Made by a program: the position numbers and the translations under genes. From a virus (taxonomy: Duplodnaviria; Heunggongvirae; Uroviricota; Caudoviricetes), in the IMG/VR virus record IMGVR_UViG_3300025466_001444: a stretch of DNA of 64,000 nucleotides; one strand, given 5' to 3'. Of the stretch, positions 1,419 through 46,815 are shown piece after piece (the first letter of the stretch is position 1; each line of letters begins with the position of its first letter). The notes beneath the pieces were generated by a model that saw only the letters and a list, made by a program, of their open reading frames with translations, was not told the DNA's origin and did not search any database.

Positions 1419-2303
1419 TTTAAACAATTCACTCAAATATACACTAAGGCACATATCTACTAAATTATATCTACATTCTAAATAATCAGATTTTTCTAAA
1501 TTATTTGGTATCAACGATGAAATAGGATCGCCTATTCTTCCGTTAGTTTCAATAACTTTAAAATTTATACCAGTAACATCTTTCATTACTTCAATAACTT
1601 GACGGCATGAAGTTGCATAACCAGAACCAATACATTCATACTGTGTATTTTTTGGTTTGTCAATTGCTTTAACAATAGCTTCTGTCAAATCCAATATATG
1701 AATATAATCTCTTAAACATGTTCCATCTTTAGTATCATAATTAGTACCAAATAAATGCATATATGGTCTAGTACCTACCGCAGTTTCTGCAGCAATTCTA
1801 ATTAAGTGGGTTGCTTTACCAATTTGACCAAACGTTCCATTATTGCCAGCAACATTGAAGAATCGAAAGATTGTGTATTCTGTTTCTTTTTCTTTTGCAT
1901 GTTCTTTAATAATACTTTCTGCTATGAGTTTTGATTGAGCATAAGGGGAAGAAAATGGATCAAATGCAGCTGCAGTAGATGCAAAGATAAAATTATCTGT
2001 AGGTGCATATTTTAAGATATTTTTTACACCGATTAAATTTGTTTTAACTTGATCCCATGGTTTGTAAATAGATTCTGATACATCTATTAAACCAGCAAGA
2101 TGCACAACTGCATCATAACTTCCCAAATAATTATCAGTTCTAATATCACCAAAAATATTTTTTCTGACATATGGTAATATATCATTAGATGAGGGTTTAA
2201 TGTCAAGTGAATCGACTACATATCCACATTCGGCTAATCTCTTAATCGTATGTGAACCAATATAGCCATATCCACCTGTCACTAATACTTTTTTCATCAT
2301 CAA
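1404..2303 (-). CDS. NAD-dependent epimerase/dehydratase (UDP-glucose 4-epimerase GalE-like)
   Basis: N-terminal VLVTGGYGYIGSH Rossmann motif and a YAQSK catalytic YxxxK. 299 aa. Confidence 0.75.
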   Translation of the reverse strand: MMMKKVLVTGGYGYIGSHTIKRLAECGYVVDSLDIKPSSNDILPYVRKNIFGDIRTDNYLGSYDAVVHLAGLIDVSESIYKPWDQVKTNLIGVKNILKYAPTDNFIFASTAAAFDPFSSPYAQSKLIAESIIKEHAKEKETEYTIFRFFNVAGNNGTFGQIGKATHLIRIAAETAVGTRPYMHLFGTNYDTKDGTCLRDYIHILDLTEAIVKAIDKPKNTQYECIGSGYATSCRQVIEVMKDVTGINFKVIETNGRIGDPISSLIPNNLEKSDYLECRYNLVDMCLSVYLSELFKRKNN

Positions 2304-3007
2304 ACTTTTTTCATTTTTTGTTTTGCCTCTTCAGAATGTGTTTTTCCTAAAAAAGATGGCGGTGGTTTCATTAATCTACCTTTAATATAACCTAAAATAA
2401 TAAATTTGTCGAGTTCATCTTTATGAATTTTTTTATCTTCATTTCCATTAGTAATCCAACAAGTACCATATTGAGAATTTTTTGATCCTATTAAATTTTT
2501 AGATTTTTTAGAATTTCTCATTTTTTGTTTTGTCTCTTCAGAATGTTTTTTTCCTAAAAAAGATGGAGGAGGTTTCATTAACCCTTTTTCATGTCTTAAT
2601 TTTGTTTTCTCACTTAGTTTAATTTTTACGAAATCTATTTGCGAAGAATTTGATACTCCATATTTTTCTTTAAGTGCAATATTAGTAGCAATTCTACCTT
2701 TTAATACCCAATCTTTTTTTTCAGGTTGTTTATTGATATAACTAAATCCACCATGTCCACCATCACAAAGATTATAACTCATTTCATTTATGACAACAAG
2801 TTCTTTTTCTTTGTTCTTCATATCTTTTTCATTATCAAATATGTGAAGAATATCTTTGGTAAAGTTTTCAATACCATATTTTTTTATAGCTCTTTTAATA
2901 AGTTTACCAGAACCCATATATCCATCTTCTAAATTAGATGTTTTGTGCATTCCGATATAATATTTTTGATTTATATTATTTGTAATTTTATATATTGTAT
3001 AGAACAT
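2300..3007 (-). CDS. GIY-YIG homing endonuclease (paralog of 662..1267) with NUMOD3 repeats
   Basis: MFYTIYKITNNINQKYYIGMH...GYMGSGK motif. Repeated GKKHSEETKQKM and PPPSFLGK segments. Confidence 0.8.
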   Translation of the reverse strand: MFYTIYKITNNINQKYYIGMHKTSNLEDGYMGSGKLIKRAIKKYGIENFTKDILHIFDNEKDMKNKEKELVVINEMSYNLCDGGHGGFSYINKQPEKKDWVLKGRIATNIALKEKYGVSNSSQIDFVKIKLSEKTKLRHEKGLMKPPPSFLGKKHSEETKQKMRNSKKSKNLIGSKNSQYGTCWITNGNEDKKIHKDELDKFIILGYIKGRLMKPPPSFLGKTHSEEAKQKMKKV

Positions 3008-3010
3008 ATA

Positions 3011-3071
3011 CTGCCCCCGTTTGTATAATAGACTTATTTCTAATGCTATTTATACAAACGGGGCGCTTATG
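3011..3071. repeat. Second copy of the 61-bp hairpin element upstream of a GIY-YIG gene start
   Basis: Identical to 1270..1330. Ends 3 nt before the ATG at 3005..3007. Confidence 0.85.
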
Positions 3072-3160: not shown

Positions 3161-4387
3161 TTACTTGTTGATACGAATAACTCCATCCTTATCAACCTTG
3201 TTTGCAAACTTTCCAGCATCTTCATTCTTGACGCCCTTAAGCTTCAAACCAGAAACAACTCCCTGATCTTTTTTTCCTTCATGAAGTCCAGCCTGTGCAT
3301 GACGATCAAATGTATTATCATCATTATCGCCACCAACAACAGGGAAACGCTTTCCAGTCTTCACATCTTCAACATGAGTTGGATGAGGTACATTCTTTCC
3401 ACGTTGATAAACCATTGCTACAACATGACCCTTGTGAAGTGCAGCTGCTGCTTCCTTATCATTTGACTCTTCATGGTTGGCACCAGTATGAGAAAGAGAA
3501 AGATGATAATTCTCAGGAAGATTAGGATGACCTACTCTGTTGTGCATTTTAGTATAATCATAAAACTGTGCAGTAGGATGACGCTTGAACAACTGTGGAG
3601 CATGTTTTTCCCATGCAATATCAGAAGTTACATTCAAACGAACGCCGGGCTTATAACCTGCTTTTGTTGCTGCCTTAACATGTCTACCAACTTCATGATC
3701 AAGAATACGAGCAGCATGTTCTGGATGTGCAGCAAGAAAATGTGTACGAAGAACTTTTGATGAAAGAGAATTATCAGGGTACTGTCTATTACCACCAGCT
3801 TCTGTTCCAAGACAATTCTTACGACATTCTTTAGAAGCTCTTGGGCATACGTCAAAATCCTTCAAACCATTAGTAGCATGAGGTGCAAGAGCAAGACCTT
3901 TAGTATGAACACCTTCACCAGTTGACTTCATTGTCTTGCCATTTTCACCTAGAAGTTCAGGACGAGTTTTGAACCCACGATCCTTGGCAAATTGATGCAA
4001 AACAGCATGTGATTCCTTAAGCTTTGCTTTGCTTTGGGCTGGTGTTTCTTTATCCATTTCACCAAAAGCTTTATGGAAACCTGCACCAATCTTCTTATGA
4101 AGATTTTCGTTTTCACCAAGACCTTCTTCCTTAGACTTGTTAATAATAGCACTTGTCTTAGGAAGATTCATTGACTTATGTGCAAGTTCGCCCGGCTTAT
4201 CACCACGATTAATGTCAAAAAGAGTTGCCTCATCTAGATCATTATCTTCATTAAGACCCTTCTTACTTTTTCCAGTGGGATCACATGGACCACTCAAATG
4301 AAAAAGAAAATCATGGAGAACTTTAGGTACACCCGGCAAGTCACTCTCTGACATTGATTCTGTAAGAAACGAACTAAATGATAGCAT
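3161..4387 (-). CDS. hypothetical His/Cys-rich protein (408 aa)
   Basis: Long ORF with many HP/HxxH motifs and conserved Cys. Local GC is noticeably higher than in neighbouring genes. Confidence 0.5.
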   Translation of the reverse strand: MLSFSSFLTESMSESDLPGVPKVLHDFLFHLSGPCDPTGKSKKGLNEDNDLDEATLFDINRGDKPGELAHKSMNLPKTSAIINKSKEEGLGENENLHKKIGAGFHKAFGEMDKETPAQSKAKLKESHAVLHQFAKDRGFKTRPELLGENGKTMKSTGEGVHTKGLALAPHATNGLKDFDVCPRASKECRKNCLGTEAGGNRQYPDNSLSSKVLRTHFLAAHPEHAARILDHEVGRHVKAATKAGYKPGVRLNVTSDIAWEKHAPQLFKRHPTAQFYDYTKMHNRVGHPNLPENYHLSLSHTGANHEESNDKEAAAALHKGHVVAMVYQRGKNVPHPTHVEDVKTGKRFPVVGGDNDDNTFDRHAQAGLHEGKKDQGVVSGLKLKGVKNEDAGKFANKVDKDGVIRINK

Positions 4388-5899: not shown

Positions 5900-5973
5900 T
5901 GGTGCCCTTATCAAGAGTTGAACTCGATTCTCTGGGTTACAAAACCAGTGCATCACCGCTAATGCTTTAAGGG
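5900..5973 (-). tRNA. tRNA-Thr (anticodon UGU), CCA encoded; 31:39 mismatch
   Basis: Acceptor GCCCTTA/TAAGGGC, D-arm GCAT/ATGC, anticodon loop TTTGTAA, T-arm TCGAG-TTCAACT-CTTGA. Confidence 0.55.
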
Positions 5974-6497
5974 CTATTCTTTATTAACTTTATAACTAAC
6001 ACAACTCTAATATCATCAGCTTCTCTAGATATAGAGTCTGGTTTATGTGGTGTGCTTGCTTCATAAGAAACAATTCTACCTGCTTTATAAGATACAGATG
6101 CTATACAATCATCTCTTTCTTTATTATAAAAAGATGTTCCGCCATCCCATTCTATTTTCCAATTTGGATTAGTATAATATAATATAGTAAACTCTCCAAA
6201 ATCATTATGAAGAGGGCAATCATTACCAATACCACTACAATTTATATAAACAGAATTAAAAGTATATTCATCAGATATTTCTAAAGCATTTTTAATTTTT
6301 TGCCATGTATTATTAATACTTGGTAAAGTATGATATATATTTTTACTAGAATCATTTTTATTAAATATCGTACCAGTCCAAAATTTCCATTTTGGATTGC
6401 TTCTGGCACTCCAAATACAAGGAATAGATAAACATTCTCTATGCGTTCTTTCTATTTCTTCTTTAGTAAAGACATCATCTATAACTGTTATTGACAT
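5967..6497 (-). CDS. 2OG-Fe(II) oxygenase superfamily protein
   Basis: HNDFGE...H motif inside a jelly-roll-like C-terminal region. 176 aa. Confidence 0.5.
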   Translation of the reverse strand: MSITVIDDVFTKEEIERTHRECLSIPCIWSARSNPKWKFWTGTIFNKNDSSKNIYHTLPSINNTWQKIKNALEISDEYTFNSVYINCSGIGNDCPLHNDFGEFTILYYTNPNWKIEWDGGTSFYNKERDDCIASVSYKAGRIVSYEASTPHKPDSISREADDIRVVLVIKLIKNSP

Positions 6498-7094: not shown

Positions 7095-7661
7095 TTATTT
7101 ATTCAGTTTAATCTGAATAGTTTCACTTATAGGAACTTGACGAACATACTCGCCATCAGATTTACGATTTGCCCAAGGTTTCAAAGGATACTCTAAAATC
7201 TTGCGACTGTCAATAAGAACTGCTCTAGTACATTCTTTATTTAATTGAACATATGATATTTGATATTTAGGATGAAGATTGAAAGGAATTTTCTTTGTAA
7301 AACTTTCTTCCCGTCTCCATTGATGATCTTTGCGCTCAATACAATTAATTTCACGGAAAGGGAAATTTTTATCTCCTTGCCAATTTCCATGGCGAACTTC
7401 AATTTCCCAACAATGAACGACTTGTTCTTTATTATCTAAAGTTAAAAGATCAATACCATGAACATTAGGATTATCAATGGTGCGAAATTCTTCAAATTTT
7501 TTGTTGAGAAATTCTTTCATGGCATCACGCCCAAGTTGGTCATACTGAATGTGATCGGCACGATCAAATTTTTTGATGACCCCAATCATTCCACGCCGTT
7601 CTGCTTCACCCATTTGCACCTCCATTTTATCTTTTATATCACATGTCAAAGGTAATTGCAA
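7095..7661 (-). CDS. hypothetical protein (188 aa; start may be internal Met)
   Basis: ORF only. A possible D...EIEVR nuclease-like motif is a weak call. Confidence 0.45.
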   Translation of the reverse strand: MQLPLTCDIKDKMEVQMGEAERRGMIGVIKKFDRADHIQYDQLGRDAMKEFLNKKFEEFRTIDNPNVHGIDLLTLDNKEQVVHCWEIEVRHGNWQGDKNFPFREINCIERKDHQWRREESFTKKIPFNLHPKYQISYVQLNKECTRAVLIDSRKILEYPLKPWANRKSDGEYVRQVPISETIQIKLNK

Positions 7662-8470
7662 TACTCAAATGCGTTTTTAAATGACTCATTTTCCATTAAA
7701 TTAACTGCTTGTGTCATCAAATGGTTATATTCTGTCACATGTTCTTTATTTGTTAAAAGATAATGCAGTCCACGTTTTTTTTGTTTTTCAACCTCTGTTA
7801 CAAGTGGTCCAAATTGTCTAATTCTTTTATATGTAGAAGGATTCCACGGAGAATATTTGTATTTTAATGTAAAAATACTATCAGATTTTAATACGCCGGT
7901 ATTATCATTTATCATATGTCTTCCCGGTTGATAATTACCATTATGTTGATTATGGTAATATCTTCCATACAAAATATCATATTGATTATTTTGTAATCCA
8001 TTAATCAAATCTGTTGCAGTATAATTAGAAATCATACCATGATGTTTTTGTTCAAACAAAGTTTTATTATAATTAGGCAAAATTTCTGGTTCTAAATCAA
8101 CCATACACACGCCATATGTCTTAAGATATCTATAACCGGCAAGAGATGCATTTACATCTTCAAGAGACATAGGAGTAAAGAAAAATTCAGTTAATGTAAG
8201 AGCTATTTTAAATCCTTCTACGGATTGTTCATATTCTATAACTTCTCTATCTACTGATTCTGTTTCATAATATTGATTTTTGCTATCAACAATTAACCAA
8301 TTAGGAGGACAAAGTTCTTTACATATTTCAACAGAACGATCAGTCGAATGATAGTTTATCATTATACCGTTATCAAATAATTTTGAATGATGTTTAATCC
8401 ACCAAGGAAGAAAATATTCTTCATTATAAAAATGTGTGATAACTGTATTCATTAAACTAATCCTAGACAA
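7646..8470 (-). CDS. putative glycosyltransferase (GT-A/GT2- or GT92-like), tandem paralog 1
   Basis: THFYNEEYFLPWWIKHH...INYHSTDRS motif shared with the next two ORFs. Confidence 0.55.
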   Translation of the reverse strand: MSRISLMNTVITHFYNEEYFLPWWIKHHSKLFDNGIMINYHSTDRSVEICKELCPPNWLIVDSKNQYYETESVDREVIEYEQSVEGFKIALTLTEFFFTPMSLEDVNASLAGYRYLKTYGVCMVDLEPEILPNYNKTLFEQKHHGMISNYTATDLINGLQNNQYDILYGRYYHNQHNGNYQPGRHMINDNTGVLKSDSIFTLKYKYSPWNPSTYKRIRQFGPLVTEVEKQKKRGLHYLLTNKEHVTEYNHLMTQAVNLMENESFKNAFEYCNYL

Positions 8471-9258
8471 TAATCATATGCGTTCAAAAATGATGTATCT
8501 GATCTTAAATCATATGCCGTCATTAAAAAATGATTATATAATATTTGATGTTGAAGTTCTGGTTTTTTGTGTAAAGAAGAAATATCATTTGGCAATTTAG
8601 AACCAAACTGTTGTACTCGTTTTATTGTTGTTTCGTTCCATGGCGAATATTTATATTTTAAAGTAAATACATTTGATGCACCACATTCTGTTCCTTCTAA
8701 AATACGATGTCTACCAGTTCCATATTTTCCAAATGGTTGATTATGGTAATACCTGCCGTACATAACATTATATGGGTCCATTCCCCATGGAGAATTTGGA
8801 ATTGCATAACCAGAAATCATTCCATGACATTTTTGTACAAATAAAGGAGCAGCATGAGTTGGCAAATTATATGGATCAACATCAACCATACACACGCCCC
8901 ATAACTTAACATAATCAACATTTCTATATAAAAGAAATTTGTTAAGTTCGCTTAAAGGTTTTGGAGTCAATAAAAATTCTGTTGTTGTAAGAGTCAATTT
9001 AAACCCTTCTACGGAATTTTCATAATATTTAATTTCTTGATCCAAAGGGTCTGGGGAAAAATCATCATTAACTGTGTTAACAATTTTCCAATGTTTAGGA
9101 CAAAGTTCTTTACATATTTCAACAGAACGATCAGTCGAATGATAGTTTATCATTATACCGTTATCAAAAAGTTTTGAATGATGATCAATCCACCAAGGAA
9201 GAAGATATTCTTCATTGTGAAAATGGGTAAGAACTGTGTTCAAACTAAACTCATACAA
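8452..9258 (-). CDS. putative glycosyltransferase, tandem paralog 2
   Basis: Similar over its full length to paralogs 1 and 3. Confidence 0.55.
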   Translation of the reverse strand: MYEFSLNTVLTHFHNEEYLLPWWIDHHSKLFDNGIMINYHSTDRSVEICKELCPKHWKIVNTVNDDFSPDPLDQEIKYYENSVEGFKLTLTTTEFLLTPKPLSELNKFLLYRNVDYVKLWGVCMVDVDPYNLPTHAAPLFVQKCHGMISGYAIPNSPWGMDPYNVMYGRYYHNQPFGKYGTGRHRILEGTECGASNVFTLKYKYSPWNETTIKRVQQFGSKLPNDISSLHKKPELQHQILYNHFLMTAYDLRSDTSFLNAYDYCLGLV

Positions 9259-10046
9259 TAATTATATGCATTCAAAAATGATGTATCTGATCTTAAATCA
9301 TATGCAGTTGATAAAAAATGATTATAAACATTTGTATGTTCATCTTCTGATTGCATATGAGGAAGACCTTTATTAGAATTCAAATCATTTTGTGGTATTT
9401 TATTTTTAAATTGCTGTACTCGCTTTATTGTTGTGTCGTTCCATGGCGAATATTTGTATTTTAAAGTAAATACATTTGATACACCAGCTTGATTCATACT
9501 ATGAACTGTATGTCTACCAGAACCATATTTACCAAATGGTTGATTATGATAATATCTACCATATAACCCTTTATAATAATCAAGGTGTGGATCAAAAGAA
9601 GGACCAACATAATCTTTAATCATTCCATGATATTTTTGTGCAAACAAGGGCATATCATGTGTCGGTATATTTTCTGGATCAATATCTACCATACACACAC
9701 CCCATGTTTTTAAATACTCAACATTTCTTTGTAAAAAATATTTGTTAAGATCATTTAAAGGAGATGGGGCAAATAAAAATTCTGTTGTTGTAAGAGTCAA
9801 TTTAAACCCTTCTACAGAATTTTCATAATATTTAATTTCTAAATCTACATAATCAGCTGAGAAATCATCATTAACTGTATTGACAATTTTCCAGTGCTTA
9901 GGGCAAAGTTCTTTACAAATTTCTAATGATCTATCTGTAGAATGATAATTGATCATGATACCATTATCAAACAGTTTTTTGTGATGGTCAATCCACCATG
10001 GCAACATATATTCTTCATTATAAAAATGGGTAAGAACTGTGTTCAT
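9240..10046 (-). CDS. putative glycosyltransferase, tandem paralog 3
   Basis: Similar over its full length to paralogs 1 and 2. Confidence 0.55.
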   Translation of the reverse strand: MNTVLTHFYNEEYMLPWWIDHHKKLFDNGIMINYHSTDRSLEICKELCPKHWKIVNTVNDDFSADYVDLEIKYYENSVEGFKLTLTTTEFLFAPSPLNDLNKYFLQRNVEYLKTWGVCMVDIDPENIPTHDMPLFAQKYHGMIKDYVGPSFDPHLDYYKGLYGRYYHNQPFGKYGSGRHTVHSMNQAGVSNVFTLKYKYSPWNDTTIKRVQQFKNKIPQNDLNSNKGLPHMQSEDEHTNVYNHFLSTAYDLRSDTSFLNAYNYCMSLV

Positions 10047-10223
10047 AACAAACTCCGATACGTTTCATATCGGTATTTATAATTATTATTCCCACCGTTA
10101 ACTACTGCTCGCTCGTCACATATAGTTATCAGCTTTTTTTACATCGATTGTGCCAAGGTGGGAACAACGGTCGATGACTTTCTGGAACCGTTTATTTCGA
10201 AAACCACGGAACTCAGATCGTAA

Positions 10224-10480: not shown

Positions 10481-10489
10481 AAAATCTTA

Positions 10490-10925
10490 TTAGGTGTGAT
10501 GTTATGTTATGGATATGGATAGACCGCCATACCGTTCGCTTTAATCTGTACCCTTATGCAGTAGGAGCGACCCCACCTTTTAGTTACAACTCAGTATTGG
10601 CCGTGCCAGCTGGACAGAGGAACCCATTGACTGTGCGCTATGCAGGAACACTGCAATTTTCCATAACACCACACCTAATAAGATGTTTCTTCAAAGACGT
10701 ACCGGCTATCTAACTGCTATAACCACCGATCATTATGGCCAATTAATCGGATTGAGCAGCCTAGTCGGCTTTCCGGTAGCCATCGCTCCGATACGCCCGT
10801 GAAGAAACATCGTTACACCCACGATGAGGTAAGAATTCTTACTACAAGAGCAAAAATCCCCGATGTTCTTTATTCCAACAATGTCAAACAGCGTATAACG
10901 TATATTACCACAATTCCTATCCATG
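10490..10925. other. GC-enriched, ORF-poor island beside the tRNA cluster; candidate structured RNA or acquired remnant
   Basis: Local GC near 45% against about 33% in flanking sequence. Only short overlapping ORFs on both strands. Contains the palindromic hairpin gtaagaattcttac. Confidence 0.3.
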
Positions 10926-11543
10926 TCAACTACTATTTTTAGGATAGGGCATTATCTTATATTTCAAACTCTGTAACAATTCTTTCTTTCTCTTTCCCTT
11001 CGCATTCACAAACACATACCTGTGTTTTCTTGGTCTAGGCTTGAGAGAGAACTTATCGCCATAAAGTTCTTTTAATTCCTTTGAGGTGTATTTATCTGCA
11101 ATTGTCTGACAATGCCTATCAATACCTTCAACAACCCAGTTCGTTCTTTTAGCAGATAGTCCCGTATAATACCAGTTTGTTGCCTGATATACAATACCTA
11201 AATGTCCTTGTTCTATCTCAGCATATGATACAACAATCTCCTTACCACATTGTTTTATTGTATTCCCTATCAAGAAACTTTCACCATTCCTTGGTACTGA
11301 ATCACAAACCCATAACCTAGTAAGCTCTACTACATTGTTTACATTTTCATCACCAGCAATTCCTCTCCTTAGAGGTGCAGATGATGGTGTACCATATATA
11401 ACAACACCTTTGCATTCATCATCCAAAAATAATCCAAATGCAATACTACAAGGTGCTTTTCTATGAAGATAATGCTTCTCAACAATTATCTTCATAGCAG
11501 TTTGATAATCAATTCTCTTGATGAGATAGTTCTCAAGAGCCAT
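10926..11543 (-). CDS. hypothetical protein (205 aa)
   Basis: ORF. Conserved HYLHRKAP motif of unknown family. Confidence 0.5.
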   Translation of the reverse strand: MALENYLIKRIDYQTAMKIIVEKHYLHRKAPCSIAFGLFLDDECKGVVIYGTPSSAPLRRGIAGDENVNNVVELTRLWVCDSVPRNGESFLIGNTIKQCGKEIVVSYAEIEQGHLGIVYQATNWYYTGLSAKRTNWVVEGIDRHCQTIADKYTSKELKELYGDKFSLKPRPRKHRYVFVNAKGKRKKELLQSLKYKIMPYPKNSS

Positions 11544-13290: not shown

Positions 13291-13551
13291 TTACTTCTTT
13301 CTTTTAAAGATACTGTCGAATGATGCGATGATAATTGCAAATAAAATAGCAACAACAGATGCAAACAAAATAACACCAAAGAACAATGCAAAGCCAACCC
13401 ACAAAGGGGAAAGAACCCAAATCCAATCCCAATCAATATATCCAGTAAGCTTAAGCCCAATAAACAAGATTGTCAACAGACCGGGGAATCCAACCCCAGT
13501 GTAATTAACTTCTATTTTCTCACTCATCCTCATCACCTTCATCATCATCAT
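13291..13551 (-). CDS. small membrane protein (gp40-position)
   Basis: Two predicted transmembrane segments. Lies between the gp41 and uvsX genes. Confidence 0.5.
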   Translation of the reverse strand: MMMMKVMRMSEKIEVNYTGVGFPGLLTILFIGLKLTGYIDWDWIWVLSPLWVGFALFFGVILFASVVAILFAIIIASFDSIFKRKK

Positions 13552-14608
13552 GAACCAAAGAACCAGAAACAGTAGTGTACTTATTCTTCAACCAATCTGC
13601 AAAGTCAGTTTCATCAAACAGCTTCTTCCAGAAAGAACTATTGTTTTCGATATCAGCCATTCGCATCTTGTCACCAACAAATTCACCAGTGCTGCTATCG
13701 AACCTTTGATACCATCCCATAGAAGGCTTGACAACATACTTGCCTTCTTCTGCAAGGTCAACAAGACCAGACCACTTATTGATGCCACCTTCGTATGTGA
13801 CGTTAATAGGAATCTTGCTCTTTTCCTTTACATAACGTGACTTCTCAACATTGATGATGAAGCTATAACCATCAATTTCTTTTGTCTTGGTATCCTTATC
13901 TTGCTGACGACCAAGAATCCAGATTGTATCAGCAGAATAATAGATACCAGTACCACCAGAAACAACATCCTTGCTATACATTTCAAGAGTCTTGTAGGTA
14001 TGGTTGACTGCAATCAAAGGAATATCCTTGAGTGTCAAATGAGGTGTAATCATACGGAACAAAGACTTCAATGCCTTTGCACGAGACATATCAGCTACAT
14101 TCTTTCCATCCAAAGCATCATCAACTTCCTTACGTGAAGCAAGATTACCAACAGAGTCAATAACAATAACAACCTTATCATCACGAGTGATAGTGCTATC
14201 AGACTTGCTTTCTTCCTTCACAGTCAAATGACTCATCAAGTCAACCTTCAACTGTTCAACATCTGTGATAGGGATATGAATAACACGATCCATATCAATA
14301 TCGAAAGATTTAAAATAACCTTCTGGCGTACCAAATTCAGAATCATAAAAAAGCATCACAGCTTCTGGATACTTCTTCATATAGGCAGATGCCATAAGCA
14401 AAGAGAATGCAGACTTGAAATGCTTTGAAGGACCAGCAAGAACAGTAAGCCCCGGTGTCAATCCACCATCAATATTTCCAGACAATGCAACATTCAACAT
14501 AGGAATGCTTGTTGGAATCATATCCTTCTTGCCATAAATTTTGCTCTCAGAGAGAACAGAGACTTGCTTGATTTTTGAATTCTTCATAATGCGATCTACT
14601 AGCGACAT
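13520..14608 (-). CDS. uvsX: UvsX RecA-like recombinase
   Basis: GLTVLAGPSKHFKS Walker A and RecA-fold motifs. 362 aa with an acidic C-terminus. Confidence 0.85.
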   Translation of the reverse strand: MSLVDRIMKNSKIKQVSVLSESKIYGKKDMIPTSIPMLNVALSGNIDGGLTPGLTVLAGPSKHFKSAFSLLMASAYMKKYPEAVMLFYDSEFGTPEGYFKSFDIDMDRVIHIPITDVEQLKVDLMSHLTVKEESKSDSTITRDDKVVIVIDSVGNLASRKEVDDALDGKNVADMSRAKALKSLFRMITPHLTLKDIPLIAVNHTYKTLEMYSKDVVSGGTGIYYSADTIWILGRQQDKDTKTKEIDGYSFIINVEKSRYVKEKSKIPINVTYEGGINKWSGLVDLAEEGKYVVKPSMGWYQRFDSSTGEFVGDKMRMADIENNSSFWKKLFDETDFADWLKNKYTTVSGSLVHDDDEGDEDE

Positions 14609-14871: not shown

Positions 14872-15981
14872 TTACTCCCAAAATTGATCTAATGTATTTC
14901 GTTTTTCAACTTGCCAACCAATCGCATCTAAAATGGTTTTAATAGGCTCAACGAATGACTTAGAATACTGTAGCTCATAATCAATGTACTTGTCAAGGTC
15001 CAATTGACGAGGAAGATTATGATGACATGCAATAACATTTTCTTTGATTGGATTTGGCATTTTCATATAACAGAACTTGATCTTATCACCATCTTGGATA
15101 AAGGGATAACGATTCCCCAGATTTTCATTCCTTAGAAGATTATTATATACAAGTGCTGCACGAACATGCATTGGTGTCCCTGACTTATATATATCTTGCT
15201 TGTTGGACCACTTAGAAAGATTCTTACAACCACGAGGAAATGCAACTTCTTCAAACGAAAGCTTCTTGAATTCCTGACGAAAATCAGCAATAAATTTAAT
15301 CATATCATCTTCTGTCTTGGACATGATTACGCCCATAGCTTTTTTAATATTATCTCGACAAGCTTGTGGTGTGGATGAACGAACAGCTTCGATGCCCATC
15401 ATTTTCAACTTAGGTTCGCTGTATTGAACACCTTCGTTATTCCATACATTCAAGATATAACGTTTCTTTGCAGTCCAAATTCCCTTACTAGCAATTGATT
15501 CACGCTTCATCTGCATCTTCTGTGCATACGCATTCATCATTACTGCTAGTTCTTGATAACATTTGTCAATGAATGGCTGAACCTTTTGTTCGCAGAAAGC
15601 ATCAACAGCACCAACAATAAATGGCGCATCGTCAGTGTTGAGAAGCTTTACCATCTCAGCCATCTTCACATAGATAGAATCAGTATCAGATGCAATTACA
15701 TAATCAACTTCCTTTGTCTTGCATACCTTATTCATAAACTCATTCATCTTCTTTTCAATCCACTTGATTGAAAGCTGACCAGAAAGAGTGATCGAAGTAG
15801 CAAGATTGTCGTCATACCAACGAAAATATTCGTTAGACAACGCACCATATGCTGAGTTGAGTTGAATTTTCTTTGCAAGTTGAAGATTGTGGGATTGAGA
15901 TATTTTTTTAATTAAATTTTCTCTATGCTCTATCAACTCCTGATCCGTCATCTTTTCTATGTCTAGCTTTTGCAGCATCAC
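14872..15981 (-). CDS. 43: DNA polymerase (family B, gp43-like) C-terminal fragment (palm motif B/C, thumb)
   Basis: KIQLNSAYGALSN (motif B, KxxxNSxYG) and a YVIASDTDS-like motif C. The N-terminus overlaps the HNH ORF. Confidence 0.85.
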   Translation of the reverse strand: MMLQKLDIEKMTDQELIEHRENLIKKISQSHNLQLAKKIQLNSAYGALSNEYFRWYDDNLATSITLSGQLSIKWIEKKMNEFMNKVCKTKEVDYVIASDTDSIYVKMAEMVKLLNTDDAPFIVGAVDAFCEQKVQPFIDKCYQELAVMMNAYAQKMQMKRESIASKGIWTAKKRYILNVWNNEGVQYSEPKLKMMGIEAVRSSTPQACRDNIKKAMGVIMSKTEDDMIKFIADFRQEFKKLSFEEVAFPRGCKNLSKWSNKQDIYKSGTPMHVRAALVYNNLLRNENLGNRYPFIQDGDKIKFCYMKMPNPIKENVIACHHNLPRQLDLDKYIDYELQYSKSFVEPIKTILDAIGWQVEKRNTLDQFWE

Positions 15982-16432
15982 TCAACTTCCTTTTCCATTC
16001 ATCAGTAAATACTCTACCCTTACGTCCAACTTTAGCATTATGTTCTGGACTATGCAACTTTCCTTTCAATGCAGAAGAAATATTATTAATATGATCTTCT
16101 GATAATTTTTTCCCTGTCTGTGCTTTTCTATTATTTTCTACATGAGTAATAGAATGTTTTTTTCCTTTTTTAGCATCACTCATTTTTTTTCTGGTTTCTG
16201 AACTTCTAACTTTTCCAGTATTTGCTTTTCTAACTGCTTCACGTTGAACTTCTTCACTTGGTATTCTTCCACTCAATCCTTTCCAAGCAATTTCATCCTG
16301 CCAACGACCATATTTTTCAAACAATAATTTATGTGCTTCTGCATGTTGTTCAACAGTCAAATATTGAATATTTGAAGGATCATTTGTTCCTCCAACGTGT
16401 TTTGGTATTATATGATGTTTGTGTAATAACAT
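15923..16432 (-). CDS. HNH homing endonuclease with NUMOD-like repeats, inserted inside the polymerase gene
   Basis: HHIIPKHVGGTNDPSNIQYLTVEQHAEAH is an HNH motif. Lys-rich repeats of the form GKK..S..H. Confidence 0.75.
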   Translation of the reverse strand: MLLHKHHIIPKHVGGTNDPSNIQYLTVEQHAEAHKLLFEKYGRWQDEIAWKGLSGRIPSEEVQREAVRKANTGKVRSSETRKKMSDAKKGKKHSITHVENNRKAQTGKKLSEDHINNISSALKGKLHSPEHNAKVGRKGRVFTDEWKRKLSDAAKARHRKDDGSGVDRA

Positions 16433-16462: not shown

Positions 16463-17941
16463 TTATTTATATAACATTTTCCTCTTTTTCATTTCAGATT
16501 CAATTATTTCCAAATCTTTTTTGGCTTCAATCATGCGCTCCTTAAATACGACACGATCATTGTACATCTTCTCCATCAGAGTAGGAAGGAAGCCTTGCTT
16601 ATCCTTACGATAGATAGCACCATTAGCAGCAATAGCATGTTCACAATTATGAGACCATTCACTATTAATCAATTCATCAACAGATGAGAATTTAGGCAAT
16701 ATAGCCACAAAAGTTTCAGGACTTACATTATATTGCATAATAAGATGAGGATATAGAGAATTCAAATCGAATGATACAACCCAATCATGCATTCCAAGAA
16801 TTGGGTCTTTTACATATGCGCCAACAATCTGTTCATCCTTATGCGTCTTCTTATTCTGAGGAATAACAATGCGCTGATTAATAAGATAGTTGTGAATGAT
16901 TACATCCCAGAGACGCACAGAAGTAAACGCATCAGAGAAGTTGACCTTCGCATCATACGCAATAGCAAATACTTGTTCGATCAGTTTCAGCTTGTCATCA
17001 AGGCGACCAACAAGATCAACGTCCTTGATATTGTACTCAATGAAAAGCTGATAATTCTTCTTATACAAATCGAACAGAGATTCATATTCAGAATAATCAA
17101 GTTTGCGTTCGCCAAGTTCAATGTGGGCGATGTGATCCAGACGATAGGATTCCTGATTAGTGAATGTGAACTTCCTGTAGAGTTGTAGATAATCAAGTAC
17201 TGTGATGCCAACAGGAATATACGATTTCTGTTCAACACCATATTTCTCTACAGAACGTTCCTCAATGATGCCCCAAGGTGAAATCTTCTTAGCCATTTCA
17301 TTTCCAAGAAGCCTACGGACACGATTGATGATATACGGAATATCAAAGTACTCCACATTCCAACCAGTCACAACATCAGGCTGAAACCACTTCATACGCC
17401 ATAGGTCAAGGAATTTGATGAGCAAAGATTCTTCATCTTTACACTTGAAGTACTTCACATTTTCATTGGTGTTTACGAACTCCCCACACCCAAGAACAAC
17501 GTAGATGTCATCCTTCTTCATTGTGATGGCAGTTATTTCTTTTTCAGCAGTTTCAATATCGGGAAACCCTTCATCAGCTGCAACCTCAATATCGATATTA
17601 ACGATAGAAATTTGCTTAGGGTCATAATCAATTTCGCCGGGATAATAATCATTGATGAATGGGTAGACGAACTGTGTCATCCCATAGATATCAAAGTTGG
17701 AAACATCGCCATATTGCTTCACATAATCACGAGCATCCTTTGGAGAATCAAAGTCGATACGCTTGACAGGATCGCCCTTTAGGTTCCTGAATTCAATCTC
17801 ATCCACATTGTTTGGATTATTGTTGTGGACAAAGAGGTACGGCTTGCAAGGCAGCTTTTCGAATACACGTTTACCACCATCATAGCCACGAAGCAGAATG
17901 GTATCGAAGTGAAGATGTGCATGGGTGTAAAATTTGCTCAT
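16463..17941 (-). CDS. 43: DNA polymerase (family B, gp43-like) N-terminal fragment (N-terminal, exonuclease and motif A region)
   Basis: Exo motifs (FDIE-like IDIEV) and an SFDLNSLYPH-like motif A (VVSFDLNSLYPHLI). The ORF ends in a stop before motif B. Confidence 0.85.
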   Translation of the reverse strand: MSKFYTHAHLHFDTILLRGYDGGKRVFEKLPCKPYLFVHNNNPNNVDEIEFRNLKGDPVKRIDFDSPKDARDYVKQYGDVSNFDIYGMTQFVYPFINDYYPGEIDYDPKQISIVNIDIEVAADEGFPDIETAEKEITAITMKKDDIYVVLGCGEFVNTNENVKYFKCKDEESLLIKFLDLWRMKWFQPDVVTGWNVEYFDIPYIINRVRRLLGNEMAKKISPWGIIEERSVEKYGVEQKSYIPVGITVLDYLQLYRKFTFTNQESYRLDHIAHIELGERKLDYSEYESLFDLYKKNYQLFIEYNIKDVDLVGRLDDKLKLIEQVFAIAYDAKVNFSDAFTSVRLWDVIIHNYLINQRIVIPQNKKTHKDEQIVGAYVKDPILGMHDWVVSFDLNSLYPHLIMQYNVSPETFVAILPKFSSVDELINSEWSHNCEHAIAANGAIYRKDKQGFLPTLMEKMYNDRVVFKERMIEAKKDLEIIESEMKKRKMLYK

Positions 17942-46768: not shown

Positions 46769-46815
46769 TTAATTTCTCCTTTAGGAAAGTTATTTGTAAT
46801 ATTATTTATAATTTT

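Follow-up and report, generated by a model that had tools for sequence, protein, structure and literature searches.

The stretch of DNA described here (IMG/VR record IMGVR_UViG_3300025466_001444; 64 kb, referred to throughout as ‘the window’) comes from a freshwater phage, and carries on its minus strand a tandem array of three genes whose products are predicted to be glycosyltransferase-like. A previous sequence-only reading had placed three consecutive open reading frames (ORFs) at 7646-10046; the program-made list recovers the same coordinates, with minus-strand ORFs at 7646-8470 (274 aa), 8452-9258 (268 aa) and 9240-10046 (268 aa), and the motifs then quoted are present. The ORF starts in this list are, however, probably too long and the overlaps between them thereby overstated. 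With starts reassigned, the array reads as follows:

9240..10046, minus strand: paralog A, a 268-aa GT-A-fold glycosyltransferase-like protein
8452..9243, minus strand: paralog B, 263 aa from a TTG at 9243 (alternative TTG at 9258, giving 268 aa)
7646..8452, minus strand: paralog C, 268 aa from an ATG at 8452 (alternative TTG at 8470, giving 274 aa); the old ‘terminal copy’ lineage

For paralog B the most likely start is the TTG at 9243, overlapping the stop codon of A as TTGA, and the resulting 263-aa form is that called on public contigs (P0002); for paralog C it is the ATG at 8452, with a 1-nt overlap with the stop of B (TAATG). Such tight packing of stop and start codons suggests that translation of A, B and C may be coupled, and the presence of an identical three-gene layout on contigs from three independent samples rules out an assembly artefact. 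The three are true paralogs: pairwise identity is 73% for A-B and 53% for both A-C and B-C, and each matches the family hidden Markov model (HMM) over its full length at 368-404 bits, with all invariant residues present. The 40-60% divergence given by the sequence-only reading thus describes A or B against C (47%), but not A against B (27%). All three proteins have an acidic pI (5.9-6.3; clade median 5.99, n=55) and, with no signal peptide or membrane segment predicted in any of them, are expected to be soluble.

The predicted fold of the paralogs is GT-A, a single Rossmann-like α/β/α arrangement, and the nearest solved structures are those of GT2 and GT92 enzymes. Their sole Pfam match is to the GT2-like family PF13704 (Glyco_tranf_2_4), at 25.9, 24.7 and 25.0 bits for A, B and C respectively against a gathering threshold of 27.5, with an alignment covering residues 10-61 only, roughly the first 50 residues of the proteins; paralog C also scores 17.4 bits with PF00535. 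Two other members of the family exceed the PF13704 threshold (P0105, 32.5 bits; P0129, 28.1 bits), indicating that the family borders PF13704. No match to PF01697 (CAZy GT92) was found in the window proteins, searches of PHROGs, NCBIfam and PADLOC with the paralogs assigned no family, and a profile search of the PDB returned nothing significant; the best hit, to the N-terminal part of GmaR, had an insignificant E of 0.51.

The segment equivalent to the DXD motif, which follows β4 in GT-A enzymes, an equivalence drawn from topology and Pfam register and not from coordinate superposition, lies between strands 81-84 and 89-92 and reads L85-(T/N)86-x-T88-E89-F90. Across 84 close and 149 representative distant members Glu89 is invariant and Asp is never found at either DXD position; any catalysis must consequently be metal-independent or make use of E89/H179, and we infer a metal-independent or Glu/His-based mechanism. 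In the N-terminal nucleotide-binding region, where the acidic residues after β1 and the Asp after β2 typical of GT-A enzymes are present, N10, E11, S36 and D38 are invariant in the same 84 + 149 sequences, and E70, E75, R164, G177-R178-H179 and R209 are invariant or nearly so; the family hallmark is then N-E-E, S-T-D, L-(N/T)-x-T-E-F, R164 and G-R-H. Sub-threshold Pfam scores, together with the replacement of DXD by (N/T)-x-T-E, indicate that these are not ordinary GT2 or GT92 members. The earlier assignment to GT-A enzymes of GT2/GT92 type therefore stands as far as fold, nearest structures and the GT2-like Pfam match are concerned, but is qualified by the low scores, the lack of DXD and the lack of PF01697; the array enzymes belong instead to a large uncharacterised GT-A family that is DXD-less throughout.

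Among the closest known systems are SunS, the sublancin S-glycosyltransferase of the SPbeta prophage (GT2; PDB 7msp), and GT2 enzymes of the SpsA/TarP type. Identity with SunS is just 12%, and no PDB chain is matched significantly by the family profile. A DXD motif is present in SunS and other GT2 enzymes at the place where the window family has (N/T)-x-T-E. Compared with the plant galactan synthase GalS1 (GT92; PDB 8d3t) and with PF13704, the window proteins similarly lack the Asp residues of the metal motif, as well as PF01697.

With no Asp at the DXD positions and Pfam scores below threshold, one could argue that these proteins are not transferases at all, but NDP (nucleoside diphosphate)-sugar-binding pseudoenzymes, NDP-sugar hydrolases, or enzymes acting on some other substrate, for instance tRNA. 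The array lies inside a cluster of tRNA genes, which flank it both in the window and in the related loci L006, L094, L096 and L097. We consider a non-transferase role very unlikely. Metal-independent GT-A families that use basic residues in place of DXD exist, and some 12 polar residues (among them N10, E11, S36, D38, E70, E75, E89, R164, R178, H179 and R209) are invariant or near-invariant in 149 representatives, the best of 1,469 clusters, a pattern that speaks for conserved catalysis. That members are fused with, or adjoin, enzymes completing an NDP-sugar (described below) also fits a transferase consuming that sugar. A tRNA-modifying role in particular was judged unlikely, since tRNA genes accompany the family only in the T4-like clade, in which tRNAs fill the same hyperplastic region.

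Immediately upstream of paralog A are two further elements, which bear on when the array is expressed:

10074..10081, minus strand: T4-type late promoter box TATAAATA, 28 nt upstream of the ATG of A
10055..10073, minus strand: hairpin CCGATATG-AAA-CGTATCGG, directly after the late box

The box is the T4 late-promoter consensus, and occurs 18 times in the window against 7.7 expected, a count reached by none of 100 shuffles; all but one of the 18 lie on the coding strand. It precedes gp23, gp22, gp20, gp18 and the head-closure gene by 28-47 nt, counted to the start codon, and in the independent arrays of the relatives L006, L094 and L004 a box lies ~32-35 nt before the first paralog, with GGAG and ATG following at the same spacing. 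The 3′ arm of the hairpin holds the first two G’s of the Shine-Dalgarno (SD) sequence GGAG (10056-10053). Its predicted ΔG is −9.0 kcal/mol, matched by 6 of 1000 shuffles, and L006, L004 and L094 retain the inverted repeat, one G:C pair being replaced by A:T in a compensatory change. A transcript beginning ~7 nt past the box, the assumed start site, would be unable to form the hairpin. Most other late promoters of the window are without such a stem, which rules it out as a general property of late promoters.

For T4 genes e, soc and 49, a hairpin sequestering the ribosome-binding site makes read-through early transcripts untranslatable, whereas late transcripts are translatable. The leader of the array has a late box of the kind used by bona fide late genes and would, with its predicted SD-pairing stem-loop, resemble these; we regard late expression of the array as likely. 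The 17 minus-strand sites of TATAAATA include those at 46803, 47896, 53780, 56552, 61101, 10074, 6545, 4423 and 16464; besides the structural genes the box precedes a tRNA-Trp and, within the hyperplastic region, several accessory genes, namely a 2OG-oxygenase-like gene (5967-6497), a GP88-like gene (3161-4387) and homing-endonuclease genes.

The T4-like nature of the phage is confirmed by its predicted gene content, which includes gp41, UvsX, UvsY, UvsW, gp46/47 and gp44/45/62, as well as the structural genes gp23, gp22, gp21, gp20, gp19 and gp18. It has no near relative among the 50,697 deposited phage records of INPHARED, megablast with the 5-kb array region giving no match; tblastn against the same records was likewise negative with paralog A at 1e-5 (RB69 included) and with the distant family member P0076 at 1e-2. 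Arrays of three or four copies are confined to one freshwater T4-like phage clade. Of its loci, L001-L003 are essentially the window’s own phage; three copies are found in L006/L007/L093 (a 202-kb contig) and four in L004 and L094. The more distant T4-like L095 and L096, in which gp43 is unsplit, have a single copy in the same place downstream of gp41.

In a neighbour-joining tree the T4-like copies are monophyletic, albeit with poorly supported deep nodes. The terminal copy (C of the window, L006_3, L094_4) forms an orthologous lineage and A and B of the window are lineage-specific sisters (bootstrap 95-99% in both cases); three further paralog types are common to L004 and L094 in differing order, with 100% support each. 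This pattern is one of birth-and-death evolution instead of one old triplication, such that the old tandem amplification proposed from the sequence alone does not hold as a single event: C belongs to an old lineage, A and B are a recent duplicate pair, and copy types turn over between relatives. Identity is also uneven along the genes, at 80-93% between paralogs for residues 1-60 and 38-39% in the last third (A-C, B-C). At identical residues within codons 1-60 the same codon is used in 93% of cases for B-C and 63% for A-B; over the rest of the gene the A-B figure is 69-87%. With its first 60 codons C-like and the remainder A-like, paralog B bears the mark of gene conversion towards C at its 5′ end.

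Several neighbouring genes could in principle be partners of the array:

10926-11543, minus strand: Mom-family DNA-modification gene (PF25680, 148 bits; phrog_1384), directly downstream of gp41
5967-6497, minus strand: 2OG-Fe(II) oxygenase-like gene, 176 aa (PF13640 at a sub-threshold 21.9 bits; phrog_274)
1404-2300: GalE-like epimerase, 188 bits, below the equivalog cutoff
7095-7613: orf172, PD-(D/E)xK nuclease fold, adjoining the array in 8/8 close relatives

The 2OG-oxygenase-like match is a weak one of P4H type and the only such gene in the window; we reject it as a partner given that, among the T4-like loci examined, it is present only in the window phage. It has its own late box and a leader hairpin of −9.3 kcal/mol. 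The gene orf172 is also rejected: its family is highly conserved (175 clusters) and found in marine Tara T4-like contigs without the glycosyltransferase family, making it a backbone gene. The GalE-like epimerase, on the other hand, recurs 5-6 kb downstream of the array in three array-bearing lineages and is a possible donor-supply gene.

The Mom-family gene, 0.9 kb upstream of the array and within 2.5 kb of it in all 8 close relatives whose flank reaches Mom, raises the prospect that the array acts on DNA, glycosylating a modified base step by step as part of a modification island, in the manner of T4 α/β-gt or of the three arabinosyltransferases of phage DLP3. The array does sit in the replication gene region, the GalE-like epimerase recurs nearby, and Mu mom is itself a late gene. 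Moreover, GT-A enzymes that glycosylate DNA exist, often working sequentially or paired with an epimerase (bioRxiv 10.1101/2023.12.21.572611), and phage DLP3 builds tri-arabinosyl-5-hydroxycytosine with three glycosyltransferases that require a 5-hydroxycytosine pathway (PMC13326640). The DLP3 enzymes (gp76/gp77/gp79), the RB69 arabinosyltransferases and the GT-A enzymes of Pyle et al. thus resemble the array as sets of several glycosyltransferases in large lytic phages, which act in series and are sometimes epimerase-paired; yet they have no detectable homology with it and different active-site motifs, and they adjoin a hydroxypyrimidine-forming enzyme, of which none is seen in the annotated window.

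Phage DNA GT-A enzymes are characterised by R...DDD...EDY/F and cluster with 5mYOX/TET plus a C5-methyltransferase (C5-MTase) or a thymidylate synthase (ThyS) homolog (Pyle et al.). The family described here is without these motifs, and no ThyS, TET/5mYOX or C5-MTase domain is annotated over ~0.4-52 kb of the window, the remaining 52-64 kb being an apparent late structural module, as judged by position and partial PHROG annotation. Mom itself is absent beside the single-copy gene of the distant T4-like L095, L096 and L097 and from all 163 loci outside the T4-like group; we reject it as the array’s partner, since it is a constant neighbour only among closely related phages. There is no tblastn match to RB69 or to any other deposited phage, the proteins have an acidic pI, and bacterial homologs are found in glycoconjugate contexts, not DNA ones. 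With the late signals added to these motif, domain, pI and Mom observations, DNA is the least supported of the three targets first suggested, and we think it quite unlikely.

The T4 α/β-glucosyltransferases have a GT-B fold, are expressed from early or middle genes and need hydroxymethylcytosine DNA. The array is comparable as a multi-copy set of putative nucleotide-sugar-dependent modification enzymes in a T4-like phage, but differs in its GT-A fold, its late promoter signals and the lack of gene 42 at the uvsX-43 locus. Between UvsX (13520-14608) and the C-terminal part of gp43 (14872-15981) there is a gap of 263 nt, in which only an 82-aa ORF is called (on a near-identical contig), too little to accommodate a T4-type gt gene or gene 42; the sequence-only reading was right that α/β-gt genes are missing there. 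A thymidylate-synthase-like (gene 42-type) domain is found neither between uvsX and gene 43 nor elsewhere in the annotated 0.4-52 kb. The polymerase gene is split, into a 492-aa N-part (16463-17941, minus strand) and a 369-aa C-part (14872-15981, minus strand), with a 169-aa NUMOD3-type homing-endonuclease gene between them (15923-16432, minus strand) that has its own late box; in L096 gp43 is unsplit, at 841 aa.

An exhaustive profile search extends the family to 1,469 representative clusters, 628 of them at E<=1e-30, and the best 150 of the 1,469 all align over most of the profile. Bacterial members are found in the Bacillus cereus group, Paenibacillus, Hyphomicrobium, Polynucleobacter, Synechococcus and others, and viral members in at least 259 IMG/VR contig stretches, giant-virus bins included. 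Multiple copies are uncommon: within +/-8 kb, 147 of 173 sequences have one, 16 two, 8 three and 2 four.

Beyond the T4-like clade, the neighbour that predominates is a gene for an NDP-hexose C-methyltransferase (Methyltransf_13/23/14), lying within 2.5 kb at 61/79 genome loci, 56/78 IMG/VR loci and 6/6 distant metagenome loci, and directly adjoining at 40, 44 and 6 of these respectively, often with a 4-bp overlap; beside it there is usually an SDR epimerase/reductase. In three proteins (P0121, P0156, P0225) an epimerase/RmlD-like domain, a C-methyltransferase and the family domain are fused in that order, and in P0141 a C-methyltransferase precedes the family domain. These fusions and operon neighbours point to rare C-methylated deoxysugars as what is transferred. 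The family gene of B. thuringiensis and P. alvei flanks a four-gene cluster of glucose-1-phosphate cytidylyltransferase (480 bits, equivalog), CDP-glucose 4,6-dehydratase (494 bits), C-methyltransferase and reductase, which matches the reported operon for CDP-cereose and CDP-cillose; these ‘spore-decorating sugars’ are described as products of a four-gene operon in the account of Li et al. 2017 contained in PMC7725333, and cereose has been reported on the collagen-like region of BclA (PMC12357932).

The GT-A genes flanking this cluster in the Bacillus cereus group belong to the same HMM family (240-265 bits) and provide its closest functional context, adjoining as they do genes for the cytidylyltransferase, 4,6-dehydratase, C-methyltransferase and reductase. 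They are, however, only 31-41% identical to the window proteins and occur singly or as dispersed pairs, as opposed to an array of the three- to four-gene type, and the window phage has no C-methyltransferase in its 64 kb. The Polynucleobacter module lies between two flagellin genes and FliR, in the company of TPR and TPR-GT9 proteins. The simplest reading of these associations is that the family is a transferase using up the NDP-sugar which neighbouring genes supply, and that its probable acceptors include protein-linked glycans.

The same surroundings may be read in favour of the host as target, the array modifying host glycoconjugates or proteins (envelope precursors, flagellin, pili) so as, for example, to block superinfection or alter recognition. 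Bacterial homologs are found in surface-glycan loci, distant phage homologs cluster with GT2, GT9-like, sulfotransferase and sugar-nucleotide genes, and the wealth of glycosyltransferase and NDP-sugar epimerase genes in cyanomyoviruses has been interpreted in this way (PMC12801897). Against it, neither signal peptides nor membrane segments are predicted in the proteins, the phage loci show no flippase, polymerase or priming transferase, and with a late promoter there is little time for a remodelled envelope to matter in a lytic infection; overall we find host remodelling unlikely. One distant cluster of this sort, on a cyanophage-like contig (L012/L013, 4692-11509), comprises a distant family member, a sulfotransferase, an epimerase, a C-methyltransferase, a GT2-methyltransferase fusion, a GT2 and a GT9-like gene; it adjoins ribonucleotide reductase, has no flippase or polymerase, and looks like a soluble multi-enzyme cassette for building a glycan.

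We tentatively favour, at somewhat less than an even chance, a reading in which the array is a late glycosyltransferase unit acting on virion or other late-made proteins. The array would form a single late transcription unit for three soluble, cytoplasmic, nucleotide-sugar-dependent glycosyltransferases of GT-A fold, the hairpin keeping read-through early transcripts untranslated. As the N-terminal part of GT-A enzymes binds the nucleotide sugar, the near-identical ‘donor half’ shared by A, B and C would imply that they draw on one NDP-hexose or deoxyhexose donor or on similar ones, and the divergent C-terminal, acceptor-side part that they serve different acceptor positions, whether in a short glycan built sugar by sugar or at separate sites or on separate proteins. 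Since the array appears to be driven by the same type of late promoter as the capsid and tail genes, its acceptors would most likely be late-made proteins, i.e. components of the virion. Turnover of copies and paralogs between relatives would in turn suggest that the glycan decoration is variable. The sequence-only reading had offered DNA, virion proteins and the host surface as targets side by side; we would rank the virion first and DNA last. A bolder version, in which the array writes a variable glycan ‘code’ on T4-like virions, with a fast-changing set of late, metal-independent (DXD-less) GT-As taken from a cellular module for protein glycosylation with C-methyl-deoxysugars, each enzyme serving a different capsid or tail site and abundant freshwater phages bearing strain-specific decoration, strikes us as doubtful.

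Saying this, a number of observations weigh against a late, protein-directed role. The promoter and hairpin are sequence predictions, and the hairpin of the relatives is predicted to be weaker, at −3.1 to −5.0 kcal/mol. Late promoters in T4 also drive some non-structural genes and, Mu mom being late as well, late timing is compatible with a DNA target. The Asp-free DXD positions tell against catalysis of the usual kind. A C-methyltransferase (Methyltransf_13/14) is adjacent or fused in 0/10 T4-like loci, with the whole 64-kb window included in that count. Collagen-like ORFs lie beside the family gene at 2 Bacillus loci only, among 79 bacterial genome loci, and the idea that bacterial homologs mark flagellin islands was discarded, flagellar context occurring at just 1/79. 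Finally, the 64 kb examined are part of a genome that measures at least 186 kb.

The model for the function we favour is the glycosylation of virions in mycobacteriophages, where sets of glycosyltransferases decorate capsid and tail-tube proteins, according to the passages on Freeman et al. 2023 in PMC12619734 and PMC12801897; the type of phage and the host are different, and the family gave no tblastn match in the phage collection.

Some further features of these genomes deserve description in their own right. Between the Mom stop codon and a tRNA-Pro gene (10486-10895, minus strand) lies a structured RNA of 280-410 nt, which begins just past a sigma70-like promoter (TTGACA-16-TAATAT, 10929-10902) and ends 4-5 nt before the tRNA gene. 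We find 16 distinct copies in IMG/VR and metagenome loci (also L093, L094 and L178-L191), some of which head arrays of at least 18 tRNAs. The 3′ domain of ~205 nt has 54 consensus pairs in 8 helices, 7 of them with compensatory changes; 99.4% of cells are paired versus 95.7% in shuffles, and the covariation score is 0.147 versus 0.078, neither value being reached in 500 shuffles, and slid controls give 0-1 compensatory pairs. The 5′ part consists of a GNRA hairpin or larger insert and a hypervariable segment, with tRNA-like T-arm sequence in some copies. Its phage-borne, tRNA-adjacent setting recalls the GOLLD and ROOL RNAs, but the window RNA matched neither the GOLLD/ROOL models nor any family in Rfam 15, and it may be more novel than the glycosyltransferase array.

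At 1277-1313 and 3018-3054 (minus strand) two late boxes are each followed by an identical 36-nt leader, gcattagaaataagtctattatacaaacgggggcag, upstream of ORFs 662-1267 and 2300-3007. For the second ORF a faint NUMOD3 match is seen on a near-identical contig, and the repeated leader would fit duplication of a mobile cassette. The 202-kb relative has a pair of neighbouring ADP-ribosyltransferase genes (PF03496, ADPrib_exo_Tox; L006 11950-13741, L007 11012-12803), which are encoded on the strand opposite to its three-gene array and ~2.3 kb downstream of it.

Most discussion of phage glycosyltransferases treats them as enzymes that protect DNA or convert serotype, and virion glycosylation has been shown only recently, in mycobacteriophages. 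We know of no earlier description of it in T4-like phages, of which the array, if the bolder, variable-code version is true, would be the first case. As three small soluble enzymes with a conserved donor half and divergent acceptor halves, the array is a tractable T4-like candidate. The fold assignment is in itself ordinary and the practical value moderate; the array does, though, define an unannotated GT-A family with a distinctive DXD-less signature, to which the uncharacterised genes beside the Bacillus cereose operon belong. One characterised member would annotate ~1,500 protein clusters from bacterial, phage and giant-virus genomes; the bolder version, if true, would give them a function, the missing transferases for the Bacillus spore sugars included.

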